From a virus, in UHGV virus genome UHGV-0324072: a DNA stretch of 43,215 nt. One strand, 5' to 3'. Positions 1 to 43,215 of the stretch are shown piece by piece. A program made the translations under genes and the position numbers. The notes under the pieces were generated by a model. It was not told the DNA's origin. It did not search any database and was given only the letters and a program-made list of their open reading frames with translations. Positions within the stretch are counted from its first letter, which is position 1; each line of letters starts with the position of its first letter.

Positions 1-612
1 ACCGAGAGCGTAAAGCATAAGCTGCTTGTTTTCTTTCGCTTCGACGCGATGCCGTCCTGTTTTAAGGTCGCCGATAATGAGCATCGCGGAGTTACTTTCA
101 CCTGTAAAGCCTTCTATAACCGCCACTAAGTCGGCTGTCCCGAATGTCTCTAAATCATCCTCCTTACCTTCTTCACTCTCAGCAGGTACTTTGTAGCCCG
201 GATGCAATACCTCAGTAAGATTGACACGCATTTCCAGCTTGGCGTAAGTCGCTACATCGATAATCGCTTTGCAGTAGTCGGTGTACTTGCGAACCTGTTC
301 AATCATGTCAGCCGTAATCAGTACCGCGCCTTTCATAGGGCTGATTAACGCCTTAATCTGGCCTTTTCCTTCGTCCAGTACATAAGCGCCGACTTCACGT
401 TCTAATGGCAACGCAGTGCCTTTGATGTACTGGTTAAGGTGTATCTCGGCTATGGTGTGCATTGCCGTGCCTAATATCGCAGCTTTACCGGACGTGTCAG
501 GAATATCCTTTTCACAGGCCAGTGATGCGGCGCAGGTTAACCACTTTTTAGCACCTGACGGTGACAGTAAGGCGTGTACGTCGTTATTGCCGCCGCGTTC
601 TTTTAGAATCAT
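1..612 (-). CDS. DUF2800-family PD-(D/E)xK (Cas4/RecB-like) nuclease, N-terminal part; ORF runs off window start and continues in frame at 42547..43215
   Basis: ATG at 612 (RBS GGAGAG upstream); translation MILKERGGNNDVHALLSPSGAKKWLTCAASLACE...; no stop before position 1; family call from motif memory. Confidence 0.6.
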   Translation of the reverse strand, partial: MILKERGGNNDVHALLSPSGAKKWLTCAASLACEKDIPDTSGKAAILGTAMHTIAEIHLNQYIKGTALPLEREVGAYVLDEGKGQIKALISPMKGAVLITADMIEQVRKYTDYCKAIIDVATYAKLEMRVNLTEVLHPGYKVPAESEEGKEDDLETFGTADLVAVIEGFTGESNSAMLIIGDLKTGRHRVEAKENKQLMLYALG

Positions 613-1893: not shown

Positions 1894-2109
1894 ATGCAAC
1901 CATCTGAACTAGGCATCCGTGTAGAACAACGCCGCAAAGAACTCGGCATCTCCCAGCGCCGTTTGGCGGCCCTGACCGGCGTTTCCCAGGGCGCGATTAA
2001 CCAACTGGCACTTGGAGTAACTCAGGACGTCCGCCCGGCAACGCTGTTCAAACTGGCGGAAGTTCTGGAAGTAGACGCCAAGTGGCTGGCGTTAGGTGAA
2101 GGGGCTTAA
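1894..2109 (+). CDS. XRE/Cro-type helix-turn-helix transcriptional regulator (71 aa)
   Basis: ORF track; ELGISQRRLAALTGVSQGAINQL HTH-like segment; RBS AAGGAG 9 nt upstream. Confidence 0.6.
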   Translation: MQPSELGIRVEQRRKELGISQRRLAALTGVSQGAINQLALGVTQDVRPATLFKLAEVLEVDAKWLALGEGA

Positions 2110-2124
2110 AGCCCCTTTCTTTTT
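2101..2124 (+). terminator. rho-independent terminator after XRE gene
   Basis: GGGGCT-taa-AGCCCC hairpin followed by TTTCTTTTT. Confidence 0.55.
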
Positions 2125-2126
2125 AC

Positions 2127-4361
2127 CTATTCCAAATCCTCCTCTGTCACCACCAGCATCTCATTTGGTTCGTATAGTGTCTTCGGCCTTAATCTATCCC
2201 CTATTCTTTCGGGTATACGATATGTTCTCGGTACTACTTCGCCGTTAGCATCGCAACCAAGCATTAGTTCTCCATCTTTCAACATTTTATCAAGATGGGT
2301 GTTAGTCACAGAGAAGTCACCGGAACGAGCCACTATCTGCTGCTGAGTAAAACCGCGACCTGTGTCATCTGACTGTTGCAGGTCTTCCAGTGCCGAAAGT
2401 ATTGACTCCTTCCTTACTTCATCCCTGCCGCGTTTAACTTCTTCCTTTACTTTTTGCTTACCTTCTTTCGTCAACCCTTCTTCCCGCTCTTTCTCCTCGT
2501 CAGTTTTGAACGGCTCGAAACCCCACGGCATCAACACAAGCGCCTTGTGTGGTTCAGGAAGGTCCAGGTTTACGATTGTGCCGTATTCTTCTGTGCCCCC
2601 CAGGAACTCAACCGCACGGTACTCTTTCGGCGGCGGAGCTTCGCGGAACTGCACAGACTCCAGCACCATGCCAACCGTTTTCTGTTGAGGACCGTGCTTA
2701 AATTTCGAGTGGTATACGTTTATTTGACGGTCGGTTGCACGTTCGATTGTCAGTTCCACGTCAACACCCGCATACAGCGCCCCACTGCCGCGTGCTTTCT
2801 TTCCGCCCTTCTGCGTATGGTGGACAACGCCTACTGCGGCTTTAGTTGCATCGCGTACTTCTTTCAGAATGGCGATAACTTTACCCATGCCGATTGCTGT
2901 TGATGAACTGTTCTCGTCGAACTTATCAATCGTCAGTGCCAGGGTCTGGTTAAGGGTGTCGAACGCAACCATGCCAATTGGCTCGTCGCCAGCAGTTTCG
3001 CGCATTAACTTAATCAGGCTTTTAAGTTTGCCGACTTCGCCCATATCGATGACGTGTACATAATCTTTACCTTCCCCGCCATATTTAGCCGCTAGTGCAT
3101 CAATACGGGTGCGTGTAGCTGCGCCACCCTCACCATCAATATAGAAATGGTGGCAACGCTGGGTATCCGCCCCCGCAAACCTGTACCCGGCGGCGCTGAG
3201 GTACATCATCCCCAGCGTATAGAACGATTTGTACGTGCCAGATTCCCCGACGATATCCCAGATACAATCCGACGGCATGTACCCCTCAACGACGAAATCA
3301 GCCTTTACCGGCTCCGGTAACTCGTCCCCCTCTGAGTCCTCCTCTGAGTCCTCGTCGTCTTCCAGGTCGTCGAGGCTGCAAGTTACTGGGTCCTCGTTCT
3401 CTGTGCGGTGTAGTTCTTCAATCTCTTCTTCCGGTAAATCAGGCAGAGCCGCACGAATGCTGTTAATGCTGATAGGTTGCTTGTCTACGTTAAGCTCGTC
3501 TGGCAGGCCGCACATACGCAGGGCCAAATGCTGTCGGCGGTTAAGCTCGGTGCAAGCGCCGTTGTTTGTATGCTGGCAGACAAAGCGCACTTCTTTACCG
3601 TCGAGCATTATGCTGGTGGAGCCCTTGCCTGTATGCAGATGTTCGTTAGGGCATGGCACTTCGTACCCGCGCCCGGAAGATAAAGCGTCAAGGCCAAGCT
3701 CGGCTTCGCAGAAGTGTGCTATATCCGCGTTAAGCCCATGCTCATCAGCGGCAAGTGTTTTAGCCTCACGCTTACGCAACCCCATCTCTTCGGCTTTCTT
3801 GATGTACCGCTCGGCACGGATAACACGCCCTTCTGTAACCGTTATCTTCGACTCTTTGTGCGGCAGGTAGATAAGGCGGTTGCCATCTTCCGTGCAGTGG
3901 TCGCGCAACGCTTCGTCTATTTCTAACTCTGCACAAATAGCACGTTGCACCATCCACGCGTCGTTAGAGTTAAACGGCGTGCGAGCTGGAACCAGAACGC
4001 GGAAAGCGTAATCTCCGTTTTTACACACATGCTGATGCGATGCCGTTGTATGCAGAATATTGAAGAACGGTGCGTTCTTGAATTTGCGGGTAAGGTCGCG
4101 GTACTGAGTACGGTTGAGATGGTCAAAATCGAACTTAACCACACTGTCTTCCAGAATAGCGTTCTTACGGCGACCGCCAACAGGCGCAATAGCTTTCTGT
4201 TTAATCTTGGCCGCGTCGTACTCTTCCTTAGTCCATGACGGGTCCACGGATAAACGCTTCGATGTATCGCAGACATACTCCACAAACTGCTCGAGCGGCA
4301 TCTCACGCGCTACAGGGTTTTTATCGAATGTGTTACGCAGCGTTGCAAAAACAATATTCAT
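2127..4361 (-). CDS. DNA primase/helicase fusion (N-terminal primase-polymerase-like region, C-terminal RecA-fold replicative helicase)
   Basis: 744-aa ORF; Walker A-like GESGTYKSF, RecA/DnaB-like helicase segment; Cys/His-rich zinc-binding-like central region; C-terminus VVTEEDLE. Confidence 0.7.
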   Translation of the reverse strand: MNIVFATLRNTFDKNPVAREMPLEQFVEYVCDTSKRLSVDPSWTKEEYDAAKIKQKAIAPVGGRRKNAILEDSVVKFDFDHLNRTQYRDLTRKFKNAPFFNILHTTASHQHVCKNGDYAFRVLVPARTPFNSNDAWMVQRAICAELEIDEALRDHCTEDGNRLIYLPHKESKITVTEGRVIRAERYIKKAEEMGLRKREAKTLAADEHGLNADIAHFCEAELGLDALSSGRGYEVPCPNEHLHTGKGSTSIMLDGKEVRFVCQHTNNGACTELNRRQHLALRMCGLPDELNVDKQPISINSIRAALPDLPEEEIEELHRTENEDPVTCSLDDLEDDEDSEEDSEGDELPEPVKADFVVEGYMPSDCIWDIVGESGTYKSFYTLGMMYLSAAGYRFAGADTQRCHHFYIDGEGGAATRTRIDALAAKYGGEGKDYVHVIDMGEVGKLKSLIKLMRETAGDEPIGMVAFDTLNQTLALTIDKFDENSSSTAIGMGKVIAILKEVRDATKAAVGVVHHTQKGGKKARGSGALYAGVDVELTIERATDRQINVYHSKFKHGPQQKTVGMVLESVQFREAPPPKEYRAVEFLGGTEEYGTIVNLDLPEPHKALVLMPWGFEPFKTDEEKEREEGLTKEGKQKVKEEVKRGRDEVRKESILSALEDLQQSDDTGRGFTQQQIVARSGDFSVTNTHLDKMLKDGELMLGCDANGEVVPRTYRIPERIGDRLRPKTLYEPNEMLVVTEEDLE
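2130..2147. repeat. 18-bp exact repeat TTCCAAATCCTCCTCTGT (second copy 42550..42567), encoding C-terminal TEEDLE of two replication proteins
   Basis: identical nucleotide strings at both gene 3' ends. Confidence 0.8.
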
Positions 4362-16795: not shown

Positions 16796-16816
16796 AAGGC
16801 CCCATTACGGGGCCTT
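16796..16816. terminator. bidirectional hairpin terminator AAGGCCCC-attac-GGGGCCTT
   Basis: between convergent genes 16331..16792 and 16822..17025. Confidence 0.6.
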
Positions 16817-17052: not shown

Positions 17053-17081
17053 ATAGTACCCTATTATATTGGGGTGTGCAA
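17053..17081 (-). promoter_or_regulatory. promoter TTGCAC-N17-TACTATTCA (minus strand)
   Basis: rc of 17053..17081; 31-bp core almost identical to 26174..26204. Confidence 0.5.
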
Positions 17082-22787: not shown

Positions 22788-23200
22788 TGGGCTACTTTGA
22801 GGACTTAACCAAAGCGTTTGATGTGCCGCTGGTGGCCTTCGGAACCACCAACGGCATCAAAGTCGCGCTTGAAAACATCGACGCGCCGACGTCAACCGAT
22901 ACGCCGTATCTTGCAAGTTACATGTTACTGGCGGATACCGAGCAGGCGGATTTGTTCTTCACGGAACAACGCTCTGGTATTTATCAGGTCGACATTAACT
23001 ACGCATCGGCGAAAGGTAGCGCGGAAATCAATAAAATGGCAGACTTACTTAACACGGCGTTTAAAGCAGGTAAGTCATTTTCACGTAACGACATCTGCGC
23101 CGAGGTTCAATCGGTTAGCCTGGGGCCGCTGATTGTAGAAAACGGATGGGCCAAACGGCCATTGTCAATTAACTTTATAGCATTCACCAAGAGGCTGTGA
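22787..23200 (+). CDS. putative tail completion protein (137 aa)
   Basis: position. Confidence 0.35.
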   Translation: MGYFEDLTKAFDVPLVAFGTTNGIKVALENIDAPTSTDTPYLASYMLLADTEQADLFFTEQRSGIYQVDINYASAKGSAEINKMADLLNTAFKAGKSFSRNDICAEVQSVSLGPLIVENGWAKRPLSINFIAFTKRL

Positions 23201-23202
23201 AT

Positions 23203-24369
23203 ATGGCTACAACTCCTTTTAAGGGCGCGAATACCGCGCAATTCTATGTGGCGGAAGTGACCCCGGGTGTAACACCGACTAACCCGGTCTGGTCACCATT
23301 ACGTAACACGGGCGGTGTTCCTGCCATTACCCGTGACACACTGACCTCCAACGAACTCGACGGCAGCCGTGAAACTACATCCATCCGCACCGGTAACAAA
23401 CAGGTTAGCGGTGAATACGCAATTGAGCTTAGCTCTAAAAGCCAGGATGACTGGTTGGCAGGTGCTTTAGGCTCTACGTGGCGATCCGGTGTTTCTCTGC
23501 CAGGACTATCGATCACCGTCGCACCCGCGGGCAAGACGTTCACACGCGCTACCGGCAGTTTTATCACTGACGGAGTTGGGGTAGGCGACCTGATTGCGTT
23601 TACCGACTTAACAGGCGATAACGCAAAACCATTTATTGTTACCGCAGTAACGGCTACCGTTGTTACTGGTGCAGGCATCCAACACACCCTGACCACCGAG
23701 ACAAAAACTAGTAAGGCTAAAACTGGCGACACGCTGGAAACCGGTAACACATGTAAGACGTTCTCTATTCTCACCTGGTACAAAGGACAGTGCGGCGGGA
23801 CTTACGCATACACACTAACCAAAGGTGTGGAAGTTTCCGGTTTCACCGTTGAGCAGGCCGTTAACGCGATGGTTACAGGTAGCTTCCCGTTCATCGGGCG
23901 CAGCCAGGAGATTCTTACTACGCCGCCGTCTGGTTCCAACTTCTCCTCTGTCACGTTTGGTGATGAGCCATTCTCCTCGGTTGACGTTTCTGTGTTTGAC
24001 GGCTATACGCCGTTGCGTTGCGACAGCCTGACCATCACCAACGACAACAGCGCATCCGCGCAGTTCGAACTCGGCAACACTAACGTAGCGTTTGTAGAAC
24101 GTAACCGCGCGGCTAACACCTTCTCCATCTCCGGCAAGCTGTATGACATGGCGATGATTCAGAAGTTTATCAACGAGCAGCAGGTAGAGATTAACTCTAT
24201 TCTGGCGGGGGTAAACGGGGCTATGTCTTTCAGTTTGAAACGTGCGGAGCTTACGGCAGTTACCCCAGAGATTGGCGGACCTGAGTCAATCACTCAGTCC
24301 ATTGAAGGCCAGGCTACTGGCAACCAGTACCAGTCGTCTATTGTTATTCAGCGTATCACCTACGCATAA
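23203..24369 (+). CDS. major tail protein (tail tube)
   Basis: ATG 23203 (RBS AGAGG); about 390 aa, Thr/Gly-rich; followed by a strong terminator; called by position. Confidence 0.55.
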   Translation: MATTPFKGANTAQFYVAEVTPGVTPTNPVWSPLRNTGGVPAITRDTLTSNELDGSRETTSIRTGNKQVSGEYAIELSSKSQDDWLAGALGSTWRSGVSLPGLSITVAPAGKTFTRATGSFITDGVGVGDLIAFTDLTGDNAKPFIVTAVTATVVTGAGIQHTLTTETKTSKAKTGDTLETGNTCKTFSILTWYKGQCGGTYAYTLTKGVEVSGFTVEQAVNAMVTGSFPFIGRSQEILTTPPSGSNFSSVTFGDEPFSSVDVSVFDGYTPLRCDSLTITNDNSASAQFELGNTNVAFVERNRAANTFSISGKLYDMAMIQKFINEQQVEINSILAGVNGAMSFSLKRAELTAVTPEIGGPESITQSIEGQATGNQYQSSIVIQRITYA

Positions 24370-24373
24370 AACT

Positions 24374-24398
24374 AAGGCCCCGAAAGGGGCCTTTTTTA
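24374..24398. terminator. bidirectional terminator AAGGCCCC-gaaa-GGGGCCTT plus T-run
   Basis: perfect 8-bp stem followed by TTTTTATT. Confidence 0.65.
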
Positions 24399-26175: not shown

Positions 26176-26204
26176 ATAGTACACTATTATATTGGGGTGT
26201 GCAA
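26176..26204 (-). promoter_or_regulatory. promoter TTGCAC-N17-TACTATTCA (minus strand) driving reverse cassette
   Basis: rc of 26176..26204; near-identical to 17053..17081. Confidence 0.5.
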
Positions 26205-34246: not shown

Positions 34247-36178
34247 ATGTCAAGCGGATGCGGTGACGTTTTAAGCCTGGCGGATTTACAAACCGCCAAG
34301 AAACACCAAATTTTTGAAGCCGAGGTTATCACCGGTAAAGCTGGCGGTGTAGCTACGGGTGCTGATATCGATTACGCGACAAATCAGGTTACAGGGCAGA
34401 CTCAGAAGACGCTCCAGGCCGTGTTGCGTGACGCCGGGTTCAGACCTGCGCCATTCACATTCGAAACAGGTGGGACTTTGGGCGTTAACGACGCTGACCT
34501 GGCGGTGTTGTGGCCAGGGCCATCAGGCGACGGCAACTATTATGCATGGAAAGGCGCCCTGCCAAAAACCATCCCGGCATCTTCAACCCCGGCGTCTACG
34601 GGCGGAGTAGGCCAGACCGCATGGGTTGCCGTTAGTGAAGCTGCATTGCGCCGTGATTTGGCCCTAAGCACTGGCGCAGGGCTAGTCGGTACGTCTTCGG
34701 GTCGCACAGTGCAAGGCGAGGTTGACCATTTCAAAATAGGGTATATGACACCCGATGATTTCGGCGCGGTGGGTGATGGTGTTACCGACGACACCGCGCC
34801 TTTGCAACAGGCTATTGACTATTGCTCAAGCAACGGTATCGCGTTAAGAATCCCCGCAAAATCTTATGTTTGGAATGGCGGTATTATAACTTCACCCGTA
34901 ACAATAATCGGTGACAGACGTCCTGATTACAATCTTAGCTCCAATTCTATGTCTAACGGGTCTGTTATAATTGGCAATTTAAGATTTTCCGCAAGCCAGG
35001 TGATTATTAAGTCACTTGGTGTGCGTAGGCCTACAGGCTCCCCCGGAGATTGTCTGGTGTTATCGACCGATAACTATGCTGGTGGGTCTTGTATTGTTCA
35101 AGATGTAGTTGCCGCGGGCCTTTCCGGTTCGGACACGTACCACAGCGTTCTTGTTGAAGGCTACGATTCCGCGCATGTATCTCAAATAACTGGCGGTTAT
35201 AATCTTTTTGGCCTCGCGATTAAGTCAAGAAACGTTGTTGCCAGAGGCGTAATAACCGTAAGCTGTGATACTGGCGTTATCATTAAATCTGATAGTGAGT
35301 TCAGCACGGCAAAAAATGTGGTGCTGGACGGGCACATTAATGTCGGTAATGGTGTTTCTAGTCAAGGTGTTTGGATTCACAGCACAACCGCACAACTTGA
35401 GCGTATTACCTGCGCAAACTTACAAAGCATCGATTCCGCTATACATATGCGGATTAAGTCCGAAAACGTAGCTAATGACGTGCAAATTGTTGGGGCAAAT
35501 TATTCAGGATCTACTTATGCGGATGTGCTCGTCGAAGGCACTTCGGCTGGCACGTTGTACAATGTTAGTTTAGATAGTATAACCGCAGTAAATAGCCAGA
35601 AATTTATGGCTGCAGGTTTCTGTGAACAACTGATGGTAACAGGATTCTATGGGTCCCTGAAACCTGGCGCTCCCGCCGATACTGCGTTTGAGGTTAGCGC
35701 CGCCGTAGGGCTTTTTAGCGGGTCAAATATCCAACTAGTCCGTCAATACCGCAGTGACCTAATGACAATGAATCTCGGTAACAGTTATCTTAATAATAGA
35801 TTATCATCTGTTAAGGCGAAAGTAATAGGAAACGGCAAACCTAGGCCGGGGTATAAAGAACAGAATCTTAGCGGCGCTGCGGCTACAATGATTGTTGGCG
35901 ACAGTTTGGGGCCCTCTGGTGTTGTGTCTGTCACCGCGATATCCGCCGGCATGTCATTCAGCAGTATTGCTATTAATGACGACTATGGTCAGCCGGTTAA
36001 GCCAGGTTTTCTTCTAATAATCCGAAACGCATCCGCTATCTCGTTCGTTATGAACCATAATCCAGGGTCTGGTGGAATCGCAAATAACGGGGCGGTTGGT
36101 AAGACCATTGCGGGCGGAGACACTATAATGTACGTTTTTGACGGGGCGAATTGGCGTCAGACTCCATCAATAACATAA
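34247..36178 (+). CDS. tailspike protein with pectate-lyase-type right-handed beta-helix
   Basis: MTPDDFGAVGDGVTDDTAPLQQAIDY beta-helix entry motif; 643 aa; RBS AAGAGGA. Confidence 0.7.
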   Translation: MSSGCGDVLSLADLQTAKKHQIFEAEVITGKAGGVATGADIDYATNQVTGQTQKTLQAVLRDAGFRPAPFTFETGGTLGVNDADLAVLWPGPSGDGNYYAWKGALPKTIPASSTPASTGGVGQTAWVAVSEAALRRDLALSTGAGLVGTSSGRTVQGEVDHFKIGYMTPDDFGAVGDGVTDDTAPLQQAIDYCSSNGIALRIPAKSYVWNGGIITSPVTIIGDRRPDYNLSSNSMSNGSVIIGNLRFSASQVIIKSLGVRRPTGSPGDCLVLSTDNYAGGSCIVQDVVAAGLSGSDTYHSVLVEGYDSAHVSQITGGYNLFGLAIKSRNVVARGVITVSCDTGVIIKSDSEFSTAKNVVLDGHINVGNGVSSQGVWIHSTTAQLERITCANLQSIDSAIHMRIKSENVANDVQIVGANYSGSTYADVLVEGTSAGTLYNVSLDSITAVNSQKFMAAGFCEQLMVTGFYGSLKPGAPADTAFEVSAAVGLFSGSNIQLVRQYRSDLMTMNLGNSYLNNRLSSVKAKVIGNGKPRPGYKEQNLSGAAATMIVGDSLGPSGVVSVTAISAGMSFSSIAINDDYGQPVKPGFLLIIRNASAISFVMNHNPGSGGIANNGAVGKTIAGGDTIMYVFDGANWRQTPSIT

Positions 36179-36182
36179 AACT

Positions 36183-36205
36183 AAGGCCCCGTTTGGGGCC
36201 TTTTC
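36183..36205. terminator. bidirectional terminator AAGGCCCC-gttt-GGGGCCTT between tailspike and replication module
   Basis: perfect 8-bp stem flanked by T-rich tracts. Confidence 0.65.
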
Positions 36206-39139: not shown

Positions 39140-39271
39140 TCATTCCAGCACCCACATATAAATTGCGATGAATATACCCAATACGGCAACCATCATGCCG
39201 TACTGACCCTCATGACAGTAAACACCGGCGGCGAATCCAGCCAGTACCGCGATAATCAGTTTACTTGGCAT
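39140..39271 (-). CDS. small hydrophobic membrane protein (43 aa) overlapping 3' end of polymerase gene
   Basis: ATG 39271; MPSKLIIAVLAGFAAGVYCHEGQYGMMVAVLGIFIAIYMWVLE. Confidence 0.3.
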   Translation of the reverse strand: MPSKLIIAVLAGFAAGVYCHEGQYGMMVAVLGIFIAIYMWVLE

Positions 39272-41441
39272 AACGCTTCATCTCCGCACCTTCTGCTACA
39301 AGAGGGAACCCCTCAGCCCACTCCGGTAATTCGCACATCAACCGCTCAAGCTCTGCAACATTGTATTCTGGCGTATCTGGTGTTTCGCAGATAATTTCGT
39401 CGTGTACGTGAAGCACAATAGGATAGCCGTTTGCTTCAACGTTCAGCAGTGCATTGGCCAGCAAATCACGGCACAGCGCCTGAGTACAGTTTTCCACGAG
39501 TTTACCAGAGTAGGTGTACTGGAAGCCCCACTGACGGGTTAACTGGTTCTCCCCCTGGTACTTGATGCGTACGTTAGTAGACACTTTTCCATCTTCGTCT
39601 GTTTCTTTCGACACGCTTAACCCGACGCCCGGATAAGACATAACGCGACCCGACGGCAACGTCATGCGCAACCACCAGCCGGCGACTTTGTTGCCGTTGT
39701 TGTCTGTCTCTACGTTGCGCGAAAACTTAACCCCCCTAGGCCCCGCGGTGAACTCTTTACCTGGATTGCGGATAGCGGCCATAGCTGCGTCTTCAATATC
39801 TCGCCAGAAAGCTACTGTTTCAGGGTGTGACTCTCGCCACATACGCTTGATAGCGTCACAGGTACGCCACACTTTCTTATCAAGAATATACGATGGTCGG
39901 TCATCCTTCTCCCCGGGTCGCGGCGGTCGCTTGGCTTCCTGAATACGTGCCCATTCATAGCCGCGTGCAGTAGCCGCCCAGATGTGGTCCGGGAAAGTAC
40001 CGTCCATTGTTTTTGACATATCAACAAGGTCAAGTCCGAGGTTCTTAGCAAACTGAACGAAAGCGCCAACACCACCAGCGTAGCCGAGGCCAAGCTCGCA
40101 GGCTTTACCAATCTGGCGCAAGTCTTTGCGTTCCTTCTTAATGTAATCCGGCTCCATGCCGAACATCTTACCCGCGGTTACACAGTAAATGTCCAGCCCG
40201 GCGCGGAACGTATCTAGCGCGGTTTCTTCGCCTGCCAGCCACGCAAGCCCCCGACCTTCAACGTTAGAGTAATCGGCGACGACAAACTTTTTTCCGGCTT
40301 CCGTGATAATGCAGCTACGCACCGTCGATGCCGTTAGCTTAGCGACATCGAAACGGCGATGCGCGCGGCCCTTAAGTAACGCTGAAATACCTTTATCCAG
40401 TTCATCATCGTGATAGTACCCACGCGCGAGGTTCTGCGGCTGAAATCCTTTACCGGCAAATCGTAATGTACGCTTGGCTCCGCCGTACTGAATGCAACCA
40501 CGACGGCGGTCGTCCGACGAGCGCCCTAACAGCAGCGGGTTATATTTCGTTGACGCTGTGGACGCGGCCCCGAGGCGCATTTCGATAATCGTGCGTGCGT
40601 CGTCCGGTAAATCATCATCCGCCAACAGGTCGTTAAGCGTAGACTTCTGCGCGTTGTGGATGCGGTGCGCTGGTGCAAGTTCACGCAGAATCGGCAGGAA
40701 GTCTTTACCAGTAAGCGAGCCGCCGTATTTGCGCTGTGCTTCTTCCTGTAGCTGGGCCTTGTGTTTTTCCACGGCTTCAATCGCGGCTTCCGCCAGCGTC
40801 ACATCAACCTTAAACCCACGGTCGTTAATCAACTGGTCCAGTTCCAGTACACGGTCTTCGAACTCGGAGTTGCCCCAACGCGGCAGCTTATGGAAGACTT
40901 CACGCATCGCAGTGATGTCGCTCACGGCGTACCTGATGAACATCGCCCACTCGTCAGGGTGAGTTTCTGCGGTGTAGCGGCGGATTTTGTAGTTCTTCGG
41001 CGTCGGTTTAGAGAAACGCTTAATCAGAGCCTTGCCGCGTTTATCTTTCGCGTTGTCTGCAGACACGCCCAGCACTTCGCACAGCGCATCAAGTGAACCC
41101 GGCAGCGCGTGACGAAACGCCCAAATCATCGTATCAATGGTGTTGCTTACGGGAATATCAAAGCCCCAGCAGTGTTTCATGATGAGCCTGTCGAACATTG
41201 AGCCGTTGTGCCACACCATCTTAATACGACTGTTCGGCTTAACCAGGCGGCGCAGTGCGCGGTGCAAATCACCCGGCATGTCGCTGCCGTCGGTGCAATC
41301 CCATACCCGCACAGGCTCGTCGTCAAAAGCATATGTGCAGATAAGCACTTCGGTAGTCGGGTGTTCGGCGTAAGCGTAGGAGCCGACTTTCTTTAAATCG
41401 GCTTCGGAGAATGTTTCAAAGTCCAGGTATAAGTAGCTCAT
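39261..41441 (-). CDS. DNA polymerase I-like (family A) with 3'-5' exonuclease domain
   Basis: Exo I LYLDFETFS; Pol A motifs DYSNVEGR (A), RQIGKACELGLGYAGG (B), VLHVHDEIICE (C); ATG 41441 with AAGGAAAAAG RBS; track start 41495 is TTG. Confidence 0.85.
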   Translation of the reverse strand: MSYLYLDFETFSEADLKKVGSYAYAEHPTTEVLICTYAFDDEPVRVWDCTDGSDMPGDLHRALRRLVKPNSRIKMVWHNGSMFDRLIMKHCWGFDIPVSNTIDTMIWAFRHALPGSLDALCEVLGVSADNAKDKRGKALIKRFSKPTPKNYKIRRYTAETHPDEWAMFIRYAVSDITAMREVFHKLPRWGNSEFEDRVLELDQLINDRGFKVDVTLAEAAIEAVEKHKAQLQEEAQRKYGGSLTGKDFLPILRELAPAHRIHNAQKSTLNDLLADDDLPDDARTIIEMRLGAASTASTKYNPLLLGRSSDDRRRGCIQYGGAKRTLRFAGKGFQPQNLARGYYHDDELDKGISALLKGRAHRRFDVAKLTASTVRSCIITEAGKKFVVADYSNVEGRGLAWLAGEETALDTFRAGLDIYCVTAGKMFGMEPDYIKKERKDLRQIGKACELGLGYAGGVGAFVQFAKNLGLDLVDMSKTMDGTFPDHIWAATARGYEWARIQEAKRPPRPGEKDDRPSYILDKKVWRTCDAIKRMWRESHPETVAFWRDIEDAAMAAIRNPGKEFTAGPRGVKFSRNVETDNNGNKVAGWWLRMTLPSGRVMSYPGVGLSVSKETDEDGKVSTNVRIKYQGENQLTRQWGFQYTYSGKLVENCTQALCRDLLANALLNVEANGYPIVLHVHDEIICETPDTPEYNVAELERLMCELPEWAEGFPLVAEGAEMKRYAK

Positions 41442-41652: not shown

Positions 41653-42279
41653 TTAACGGCGGCGACGTTCGCGGCGCGGTGCTTCATCTTCTTCGTCGTC
41701 TTCCAGGTCGTCGACGCTTGCAGCAACTTTAGAGCCTCCAAACGCTTTACCTTCGCCAACGTACTTAATTGCCAGCAGGTTAACGCCGAGTACTTTATAT
41801 TTCTGGCTGAACCAGATTTCAACGCTTACGTTAGCGACGCAGCCACTGTACACCTGTTCACCTTCAATCTGTTCGCCTTCTACATTGAAGTCTGGTTCTA
41901 CCTGAGTTTCGCCTTTTTTAGATGTTACAATCAGAGGTTGTTTCTGCGCTTTCGCTTTGAAGTAGAAACCTTCCGGGAAGTCTTCAAACGGATTGTCGCG
42001 CTCGGCGATGTCCTTAATCGCGCATTTATCCATGTGCTTGCCTTCGCCGTAGTTTGACTTCATCCATTTCTCTGCGGCGGCTGCACCCAACGCTTCTTCA
42101 ACCACAGCGTAAACGGTGTCGTAGAGCGCGTCGATTTGAGCATGGTCAGACGGCAGGATGATAGTTGCGCTGTACTGGCCTTTAGTGATTGAGCCGTCGT
42201 CGTTTTCACGGTCTTTTTCGCGTTCGAATACGTTAACCCATGCAGTGTTTACTTTACGCAGATTCAGTTTAATGCCCAT
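41653..42279 (-). CDS. putative ssDNA-binding protein (DUF2815-like)
   Basis: 208 aa; acidic DDLEDDEEDE tract near C-terminus; first gene behind promoter 42333..42361; family call from memory. Confidence 0.4.
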   Translation of the reverse strand: MGIKLNLRKVNTAWVNVFEREKDRENDDGSITKGQYSATIILPSDHAQIDALYDTVYAVVEEALGAAAAEKWMKSNYGEGKHMDKCAIKDIAERDNPFEDFPEGFYFKAKAQKQPLIVTSKKGETQVEPDFNVEGEQIEGEQVYSGCVANVSVEIWFSQKYKVLGVNLLAIKYVGEGKAFGGSKVAASVDDLEDDEEDEAPRRERRRR

Positions 42280-42332: not shown

Positions 42333-42361
42333 ACTATAATAGCTAACTATTCAGGTGTCAA
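42333..42361 (-). promoter_or_regulatory. sigma70-like promoter TTGACA-N17-TATAGT with palindromic spacer (minus strand)
   Basis: rc of 42333..42361; spacer contains AATAGTTAGCTAT. Confidence 0.5.
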
Positions 42362-42550
42362 ATAAAATTTCGCAATACGGACTATGTTCTCGAAATCATT
42401 CATATCAACGGGTTCGAATTCATCCTCCACATGGTTGTATCGCACCATCGTGCCGTTCAGGAACGTAAACGATTCCGAATGGATATAACCGCCCCAGCGC
42501 CATATCATCACAAAATCTTTATCTGTGGGCATTTCATTTACTTGAATCAT
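42347..42550 (-). CDS. hypothetical protein (67 aa)
   Basis: ATG 42550 (RBS AGGA) overlaps stop of nuclease gene (ATGA); track start is an upstream alternative codon. Confidence 0.4.
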   Translation of the reverse strand: MIQVNEMPTDKDFVMIWRWGGYIHSESFTFLNGTMVRYNHVEDEFEPVDMNDFENIVRIAKFYLTPE

Positions 42551-43215
42551 TCCAAATCCTCCTCTGTTACCTGATTCCACTCAGGACGTTTGTCGTCTGC
42601 CGTTGCGACACATGGTGCGCCTGGCTTACGGGTAATGAAGTCTTTCAGTTCTTCTTCCGGTATGACTTTAACAGCTTCGGTAGGTGACATGAGCACTTCT
42701 TTAGTCAGCTTGTCGCCGTAGAGTTCTGTTACTTTCTCCGCGTCTTTCCATGCACGATTACCCGGGCGGCCTTCAACCAACTTGTAACCAGGAACTTTCT
42801 TACCTGAATGCAACGCGGCCGCCATAGCTTTCTCAACCTTGTCGATGTGCTGGCGCAACAGCGGCAACTTCTCATACTCAGCTACGAGTTGCTCCGGCGT
42901 CAGTTCCAGCACAAAGTCGTCTTCCAGTTCTTCCGCCAGTACAGAATTAACCGTCTTTGTACGCGCAGCGCATTGTTCAGAGAACCGGCACCACTGACAA
43001 CCATCTACCGATGGCTTGAAGTCCGACGCTTTCAGGTTCTTCTTGCCACGGAAATACGCATCAAGCGCTAACAGCGCGCGTTTCTGTGCGAACTTAGCGA
43101 ACAGTTCCAGTCCTTCAACCGAGATGTCCCACTCTGTCGCGCCCCCAGCGTAAGGCTGGAAGATGACCAGACGAACGGTTGTTATGTTATAACGTCTCTT
43201 GAGTCGACGATAAAC
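42547..43215 (-). CDS. DUF2800-family nuclease, C-terminal part; ORF enters from beyond window end and is in frame with 1..612
   Basis: open frame from 43215 to stop at 42547; Cys cluster CQWCRFSEQC (Cas4-like Fe-S motif); ends VTEEDLE. Confidence 0.6.
   Translation of the reverse strand, partial: VYRRLKRRYNITTVRLVIFQPYAGGATEWDISVEGLELFAKFAQKRALLALDAYFRGKKNLKASDFKPSVDGCQWCRFSEQCAARTKTVNSVLAEELEDDFVLELTPEQLVAEYEKLPLLRQHIDKVEKAMAAALHSGKKVPGYKLVEGRPGNRAWKDAEKVTELYGDKLTKEVLMSPTEAVKVIPEEELKDFITRKPGAPCVATADDKRPEWNQVTEEDLE

Follow-up and report, generated by a model that had tools for sequence, protein, structure and literature searches.

An acidic [ST][DE][DE]DL motif in three replication proteins of a Kagunavirus genome and its overlap with a Shine-Dalgarno sequence

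Acidic-tail hubs of replisomes and the coupling of neighbouring genes through an ATGA stop/start overlap are both already well known. In bacteria, the C-terminal tip, DDDIPF, of SSB (single-stranded DNA-binding protein) serves many enzymes of DNA metabolism. Its role as an acidic interaction hub is introduced in PMC5686142, where DUF2815/Enc34 ORF6 is also described as a T7 gp2.5-type SSB with an acidic tail and where, for the gp2.5 structural class, the segment following the fold is reported to be acidic, unstructured and engaged in protein contacts. In phage T7, the gp2.5 tail anchors on a basic patch at the front of the polymerase, and a peptide from the gp4 tail binds the same site (PMC12339929). 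Here we compare these systems with a virus genome of 43,215 nucleotides (UHGV-0324072, the whole of which we refer to as the window) in which a replicative helicase-primase and a DUF2800 exonuclease end in the same acidic tail, VTEEDLE, encoded by the same DNA. We consider it fairly probable that a conserved motif is reused in three replication proteins of this phage, the third being its SSB, and that the codons of the motif at the same time provide the next gene with its ribosome-binding site (RBS), with no copying between genes needed; the use made of the motif is probably docking.

Two gene ends with the same tail

The window represents a Kagunavirus genome in circular permutation and shares 99.8% identity with Escherichia phage NicoleGrasset_Bas72 (Bas72). 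Because of this permutation, the DUF2800 gene is cut by the window ends (612..1 plus 43215..42547, minus strand; 426 aa), with residues 1-204 encoded by its 5' part (1..612) and residues 205-426 by its 3' part (42547..43215), and the two tail sites therefore lie just ~2.8 kb apart on the genome. At the right window end, the listings of open reading frames (ORFs) give merely a 121-aa fragment of this gene. The assignments of a helicase-primase and a DUF2800 nuclease made in the earlier note hold: the helicase-primase (2127..4361, minus strand; 744 aa) matches AAA_25 and, over its full length, PHROG 3228 ('replicative helicase-primase'), the exonuclease matches PF10926 (E=8.6e-65; 219.7 bits against a Pfam gathering cut-off of 21; residues 13-415) as well as PDDEXK_1, i.e., the PD-(D/E)XK fold, and both identities agree with the Bas72 annotation. 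The tail of the exonuclease (residues 416-426) lies beyond the Pfam model, whose end falls at residue 415 of 426. A PDB sequence search with the helicase-primase gave no match, and protein searches with it gave 8 and 4 matches, hence distant homologues were taken from fetched loci (see below); for DUF2800, the 222-aa C-terminal half was used as the query. The SSB (41653..42279, minus strand; 208 aa) is of the T7 gp2.5 type, with matches to PF10991 (Enc34_ssDNA-bd; E=2.2e-15), phrog_112 ('Gp2.5-like'; E=1.8e-42) and PDB 4jg2. The DNA polymerase (39261..41441, minus strand) belongs to family A but resembles family-A polymerases of solved structure weakly and locally, and its matches included no T7 polymerase; by analogy with T7 it would be a candidate receptor of the motif.

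On the minus strand, the helicase-primase ends at 2150..2127 with GTG ACA GAG GAG GAT TTG GAA TAG and the exonuclease at 42570..42547 with GTA ACA GAG GAG GAT TTG GAA TGA, both reading V-T-E-E-D-L-E-stop. We thus confirmed the identical protein ends and the DNA identity at 18 of 18 positions that had been reported for this genome: the 18-mer TTCCAAATCCTCCTCTGT is found exactly at 2130-2147 and 42550-42567, and an exhaustive k-mer comparison extended the exact identity to 19/19 (2129-2147 and 42549-42567; ATTCCAAATCCTCCTCTGT on the plus strand), or 21/22 when the flank is included. The string shared on the coding strand is ACAGAGGAGGATTTGGAAT, which contains GAGGAGGA. With up to 2 mismatches allowed, the 18-mer has 3 matches in the genome against 0.01 expected from shuffles. 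Shuffling of each protein's own residues placed [ST][DE][DE]DL among the 8 C-terminal residues at P ~1e-4 for the helicase-primase, and never in 20,000 shuffles of DUF2800.

Conservation of the tails and further copies of the motif

To place these tails in an evolutionary context, we fetched 74 IMG/VR loci with DUF2800 relatives (44-93% identity), which GenBank matches assign to Kagunavirus, Jerseyvirus, Klebsiella VLCpiS11a-like phages, Dhillonvirus (EK99P-1-like) and one unassigned contig (L072). The comparison of orthologues proposed in the earlier note showed that the tail is kept in both proteins well outside Kagunavirus, in at least five lineages, and that the two tails co-vary by lineage. 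Specifically, the helicase-primase and DUF2800 tails read, respectively, VVTEEDLE and QV(T/S)EEDLE in Kagunavirus, TTEGDLE and VTEDDLEA or VTEEDL in Jerseyvirus, VASDEDLNS and (A/V)SDEDLS in VLCpiS11a-like phages, SATDDDLKD and EATDEDLSNE in Dhillonvirus, and VATDDDLAD and EATDEDLE in L072. The codons behind these residues differ: in VLCpiS11a-like phages one of the two proteins has AGT or AGC for Ser where the other mostly has TCC, and Leu is encoded across the tails by TTA, TTG, CTT and CTG. In the Dhillonvirus helicase-primases (GATGACGACCTG) the Leu codon is TTA, CTT or CTG, with the peptide kept without a Shine-Dalgarno (SD) sequence and with no annotated or conserved downstream gene. The use of different codon families for the same tail residues argues for selection on the amino acids; as far as sequence comparison can tell, TEEDLE is a selected peptide in the helicase-primase and in DUF2800 alike.

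In Kagunavirus helicase-primases, conservation reaches 91% over the 18 C-terminal residues and averages 53% over the 117 aa upstream, and in 22 of 35 genomes those adjoining 117 residues have been swapped for alleles of at most 41% identity. In an AlphaFold2 (AF2) model of the last 200 residues, built from a shallow 9-sequence alignment, a winged-helix-like domain with a confidence score (pLDDT) of 75-88 is followed by 15 final residues with pLDDT below 50, i.e., the model predicts a tail that extends flexibly from that domain. The domain itself (residues ~610-726; 2184-2534) is mosaic, with at least three allele classes (about 35%, 40% and >83% identity) and a constant tail.

The pairing of tails extends to more remote phages. 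In a set of 150 representatives of DUF2800 at large, the C-terminus is [DE]DDL followed by 1-2 residues in the nearest of them and [DE]DL[ILFV] in many of the remote ones. On a distant contig carrying baseplate genes (L076/L077), DUF2800 ends in SDDDLND and the neighbouring Enc34-type SSB has ATADDDDLADDDED (DDDDLADDDED), while on another (L082) DUF2800 ends in DTSADDLF and the SSB in DTGADDSSDLF, a T7-like acidic tail with a final Phe. That the nuclease carries the tail of the SSB appears to be a general rule.

We then scanned the whole window in six frames and found the motif family almost solely in the helicase-primase, DUF2800 and the SSB, with strict [ST][DE][DE]DL matches being the two tails. 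On this sequence evidence, TEEDLE exemplifies a short acidic motif found repeatedly in three replication proteins (the motif peptide strings are KTLYEPNEMLVVTEEDLE, KRPEWNQVTEEDLE, AASVDDLEDDEEDE and VTCSLDDLEDDED). The helicase-primase has a copy in its inter-domain linker, C-SLDDLEDD-EDSEED (3354..3377, minus strand; CSLDDLEDDED at 3377), and in each lineage the majority of loci have C[STD]x[DEAF]DL[DEA][DN] in this linker, the motif being absent in 5/39 Kagunavirus and 2/9 Jerseyvirus loci. In the SSB, a copy directly follows the OB fold, FGGSKVAA-SVDDLEDD-EEDE (41695..41718, minus strand; ASVDDLEDDEEDE at 41718), and relatives have [STN]x[DEN]DL[DEG][DN] after ...FGG. DUF2800 contains KEDDLE at 162 and a degenerate internal copy, AEELEDD, after a Cys cluster (42916..42936, minus strand). 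The latter site reads ATD[DE]DL[GA]D in 15/15 Dhillonvirus loci, in L072 and in 1/7 VLCpiS11a-like loci, and AEELEDD in most Kagunavirus loci; no copy was detected there in most VLCpiS11a-like and roughly half the Jerseyvirus loci. When the whole genomes of EK99P-1 and VLCpiS11a were scanned in six frames, the strict motif was likewise confined to the same three proteins with one exception, the 62-aa gp23 of VLCpiS11a (L079; 12447-12635), which ends in ATDEDLE and whose TGA overlaps the polymerase ATG; this protein may be a fourth carrier of the tail, or else its ending is purely a by-product of an RBS.

Several observations concern these proteins more generally. The SSB ends not in the acidic block but in a conserved basic tip, APRRERRRR (41653-41694), and in the SSBs of Dhillonvirus and VLCpiS11a-like phages (L050-L073) an acidic-then-basic unit (DDEDEDD..PRKRR) is repeated 2-4 times, which is unusual for an SSB tail. 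The window polymerase has a motif-like LNDLLADDDLPDDAR at residues ~285-300 (~40600), probably in a folded region, and phage Jersey has TDEDLPDD (L085, 31212). A match to a looser pattern, KDEDLAEY at 1337, lies in a very acidic 166-aa protein of unknown function (1269-1769, phrog_3127) upstream in the same operon.

How do these proteins compare with the described systems? The comparison with T7 made in the earlier note is apt because the SSB is of the gp2.5 type. As with T7 gp4 and gp2.5 binding gp5, the window combines a gp2.5-type OB-fold SSB and a helicase-primase with similar acidic tails and a family-A polymerase: an acidic block follows FGG in the SSB, and the helicase-primase tail resembles it (VTEEDLE vs SVDDLEDD; in L072, ATDDDLAD vs TDDDLGD). 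Unlike T7, the motif has a conserved Leu and lacks an aromatic residue at the terminus (the window tails end in Glu and those of relatives in D, S, E or A, with a T7-type C-terminal Phe seen only in L082, ..DDLF and ..SDLF), and we therefore regard the system as working like that of T7 and not as a member of it. Further differences are the third carrier (the DUF2800 nuclease), the extra internal copies, the continuation of the SSB into a basic, Arg-rich end, a helicase that is an AAA_25/RepA-type protein without a PDB relative, and the weak similarity of the polymerase to solved family-A enzymes. The likeness to the bacterial SSB tip lies in a short, acidic linear motif that sits on a disordered tail and would act as a common handle. 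In bacteria, however, SSB alone has the motif and the enzymes have the pockets, whereas here it is the enzymes that share the SSB's motif, an arrangement that points to mimicry or competition; the sequence also differs. Finally, the window SSB shares with ORF6 (DUF2815) of Enterobacter phage Enc34 the Pfam family PF10991 and an acidic unstructured segment right after the fold end, ...FG(G/E) (PMC5686142), but the Enc34 tail, as deduced from the cloning primers, ends in ...WDEDEV (PMC5686142), with neither a DL motif nor a basic extension.

A Shine-Dalgarno sequence within the tail codons

The main explanation at the DNA level, absent from the earlier note, is that the 18-mer contains a strong SD sequence, GAGGAGGA, at a distance of 6 nt from a following ATG, which overlaps the stop codon as ATGA. 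In the DUF2800 tail, GAGGAGGA lies within the Glu-Glu-Asp codons (42557..42564, minus strand), and the ATG (42550..42548) of a 67-aa gene (MIQVNEMPTDKDF...; 42347..42550, minus strand; Bas72_0045) overlaps the DUF2800 TGA (42549..42547). This gene matches phrog_6314 from profile position 1 (E=1.9e-23), and the site at 42547 thus shows what is expected of a translationally coupled pair, i.e., an SD 5-9 nt 5' of a stop-overlapping start and a conserved downstream ORF. The tail codons double as the RBS of coupled downstream genes. The arrangement at 42547-42564 is that of known ATGA coupling with the SD in the upstream coding region, and ATGA-type junctions also occur elsewhere in the operon (609-612 and 41438-41441) and between gp23 and the polymerase of VLCpiS11a. 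Unlike in plain ATGA coupling, the RBS codons coincide with a selected peptide motif (dual coding), and the helicase-primase copy keeps its RBS without a gene behind it. This second GAGGAGGA (2137..2144, minus strand) is followed by GGAATAG in place of GGAATGA, so that a TAG stands at 2127 with no start codon after it. It marks the left edge of an empty cassette slot, whose right edge is a hairpin terminator 11 nt further (2098..2118, detected on the plus strand), common to the converging genes of the helicase-primase and a helix-turn-helix regulator.

Relatives vary at both sites. At the DUF2800 end, 46 of 73 loci have SD-type codons (e.g., ACA GAG GAG GAT TTR GAA TGA) together with a coupled gene, 25 have non-SD codons (e.g., AGT GAA GAA GAT TTR GAA TAA, or ACT GAA GAC GAT TTA GAG GCT TGA) and no coupled gene, and 2 are exceptions; the contrast is independently repeated within Jerseyvirus, and the Kagunavirus and Jerseyvirus examples of non-SD ends that we inspected have a promoter-like TTGACA...TATTAT 3' of the stop. 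At the helicase-primase end, a gene is coupled through ATGA in 15 of 47 loci and the slot is empty in the other 32, the window included. Filled slots hold three unrelated cassettes of 36, 65 or 104 aa in Kagunavirus and cassettes of 135 and 191 aa in Jerseyvirus-type loci, and the inspected Kagunavirus cassettes sit precisely between ...GGAAT and the terminator. We found no cassette common to the helicase-primase and DUF2800 sites in the fetched loci. The perfect GAGGAGGAT, which forms a synonymous pair with GAAGAAGAC at 42557-42565, has been lost from the Kagunavirus helicase-primase site in 9 of 23 empty slots vs 1 of 13 filled ones, a drift that agrees with the RBS constraint being relaxed while the peptide stays unchanged. 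At Leu, internal motif copies use almost solely CTN, mostly CTG. Copies at a gene end that serve a downstream start have TTR, and the spacer between SD and ATG is thereby kept A/T-rich.

Both gene ends are hot spots of alternative small genes (relatives L001-L049). After DUF2800 we saw at least five cassettes, several of them predicted membrane proteins, or a strong sigma-70-like promoter directly 3' of the stop. In practical terms, because the tail codons are the RBS of the next gene, any mutation or tag placed in the tail at either gene end will alter that gene's expression as well if the RBS is not reconstructed.

Docking and the alternative explanations

Taken together, these results suggest the following mechanism. 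The phage group would place [ST]-[DE]-[DE]-D-L on flexible parts of the helicase-primase, the DUF2800 Cas4-like exonuclease and the gp2.5-type SSB, and all copies would be read by one common partner, with the helicase-primase and exonuclease mimicking the SSB tail; the family-A polymerase, the OB groove of the SSB and the DUF2800 C-terminal domain are candidates for this partner. At both gene ends, the Glu-Glu-Asp codons would be fixed as GAG-GAG-GAT, yielding the SD GAGGAGGA, with Leu kept as TTR, and the tail would also serve as RBS for a small downstream gene whose ATG overlaps the stop. Such coupling would be active at 42547, and the slot at 2127, empty here (TAG, terminator), is occupied in some relatives. 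The near-identity of the tail DNA would then follow from the same peptide under the same RBS constraint, without copying between the sites. The shared interaction tag put forward in the earlier note is thus favoured by comparison, i.e., by a tail that is conserved and co-varying in at least five lineages, written in different codons, and found again in the SSB and the linker; docking on a shared partner is what we infer from this comparative evidence and the T7 precedent. A more specific version is speculative and, in our view, doubtful: the motif may be an undescribed interaction code of the DUF2800/gp2.5-like SSB/family-A polymerase module in which exonuclease and helicase-primase mimic the SSB tail and compete for one receptor, possibly the DUF2800 C-terminal domain, whose own tail appears docked in the AF2 model, making the nuclease a tail-gated hub opened in trans by the SSB or helicase-primase.

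Several points weigh against a docking motif of this kind. The AF2 model of the DUF2800 C-terminal half (61 sequences) has a mean pLDDT of 92.6, and the tail, at 90-94 with a short helix over EEDL, is itself modelled with confidence, so it may pack in cis on its own C-terminal domain; that is, it may be a structural element of that domain and not free to dock in trans. In phage Jersey the tails read TERDLE and TAEDLE, so motif positions 2-3 tolerate change. Most gene-end copies carry the SD, leaving peptide and RBS constraints partly confounded within Kagunavirus, and the counts of SD-type codons and coupled genes come from phylogenetically related loci whose events are not independent. The polymerase is merely distantly related to solved family-A polymerases, which makes the T7 analogy a functional one only, and the tails of the window group end in Glu, Asp or Ser where T7 tails end in an essential aromatic residue.

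The first of these points leads to an alternative that we hold to be unlikely, in which the copies are independent structural elements, each part of its own fold or of an autoregulatory contact in cis (e.g., an acidic DNA mimic), with no common partner. Besides the confident helical DUF2800 tail, it can draw on the folding back of acidic SSB tails on their own OB groove, as stated in the part of PMC5686142 that cites Marintcheva 2008. It is, however, hard to see without a common reader why the tails of two unrelated folds should co-vary lineage by lineage, and the helicase-primase tail is predicted to be disordered and remains 91% conserved despite the swapping of the adjoining domain in 22 of 35 genomes. 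As for the remainder of the DUF2800 model, its sole low-confidence stretch is the internal AEELEDD insert, and a Foldseek search of the C-terminal model against the PDB found no solved relative.

An alternative that we judge distinctly improbable takes the tail to be a pure by-product of translation initiation, T-E-E-D-L-E being the upstream-frame translation of a portable SD-spacer-ATGA cassette with no role in the protein. The SD and ATGA at 42547, the variable downstream cassettes fed by both sites, and the unrelated 62-aa VLCpiS11a protein with ATDEDLE at its end and a TGA overlapping the polymerase ATG would all be expected in that case. The peptide is nevertheless kept where there is no SD or downstream gene, as Kagunavirus SEEDLE (GAAGAA, TAA stop, promoter-like sequence), Jerseyvirus TEDDLEA and Dhillonvirus TDDDLKD; the linker, SSB and mid-DUF2800 copies are internal and therefore cannot act as RBSs of gene ends; Leu and Ser are retained across codon families; and distant DUF2800/SSB pairs share tails of another sequence.

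The gene conversion or recent tail duplication suggested in the earlier note, i.e., a short DNA patch copied between the gene ends with peptide identity as a by-product, is very unlikely in light of a permutation test on the two tail 18-mers of 32 Kagunavirus genomes, which gave no conversion signal. Mean identity within a genome was 15.25/18 vs 15.29 for random pairs (p=0.69), and 4 of the 32 genomes had an exact 18/18 pair where 3.2 would be expected (p=0.40), the window combining the commonest helicase-primase variant (13/32) with a common DUF2800 variant (5/32). What speaks for copying is the 19/19 identity in the window, synonymous sites included, and a second nucleotide-identical motif pair, which is also the longest exact repeat of the genome: 22 nt (3352-3373 and 41693-41714; TCGTCGTCTTCCAGGTCGTCGA on the plus strand) that encode (S)xDDLEDDE in the helicase-primase linker and the SSB tail. 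In some Dhillonviruses, moreover, the SSB variant 'DLDN' is identical to the helicase-primase linker over 15 nt. Yet in relatives the identical linker/SSB stretches vary in length between 3 and 22 nt and are written in the commonest codons (GAC/CTG/GAA), and the 22-nt identity looks like the same peptide combined with codon preference. At the two tail sites, Leu codon states (TTA/TTG) show no concordance within genomes, the same peptide is written in different codon families in other lineages, and we saw neither an excess of within-genome identity nor homology beyond the constrained codons, the flanks being unrelated. A longer repeated element, which the earlier note had named as another possible source of the identity, or a mobile element was rejected: the exact repeat is just 19 nt, its flanks differ, and the downstream cassettes are unrelated between the two sites and not flanked by a duplicated tail. 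Least probable of all is a C-terminal degradation or turnover tag for a host protease or adaptor, a possibility that the earlier note had raised, since the motif does stand at the extreme C-terminus of two proteins but its internal and SSB copies are not terminal, and it is unlike the known ClpX C-terminal classes, which are LAA-like or basic.

Returning to the reuse of a docking motif, our literature searches found no description of [ST][DE][DE]DL and no replisome biochemistry for the DUF2800/SSB/polymerase module; the motif, its presence on the DUF2800 nuclease, its multiplicity, its co-variation by lineage and its overlap with an RBS all appear to be undescribed. Should the motif indeed be a docking handle common to these proteins, it would supply a concrete, testable wiring rule for a replication and recombination module that occurs in hundreds of siphoviruses of Escherichia, Salmonella and Klebsiella, among them therapy candidates and BASEL phages, and it would give the DUF2800 family a first mechanistic feature, extending the acidic-tail principle of T7 to a nuclease.

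A few minor observations on repeats remain. The 19-nt tail repeat ranks third by length among the exact repeats of the genome, and the third near-match to the 18-mer (16/18 at 23934-23951), antisense in the gene of a minor tail protein (23197..24369, phrog_290) with the frame NVTEEKLEP, is probably due to chance. Two other exact repeats are found at 17061-17081 and 26184-26204, also among the long repeats of the genome, and at 24365-24382 and 36174-36191, with a further inverted copy at 16807. The long repeat CTATTATATTGGGGTGTGCAA looks like a common promoter -10 region and the long repeat CATAAAACTAAGGCCCCG like a common terminator stem. Among the fetched loci, the SSB ORF of L068 ends in ...AVSYTHLRAHET, which is a translated Illumina Nextera adapter; this IMG/VR contig therefore ends in untrimmed adapter sequence.

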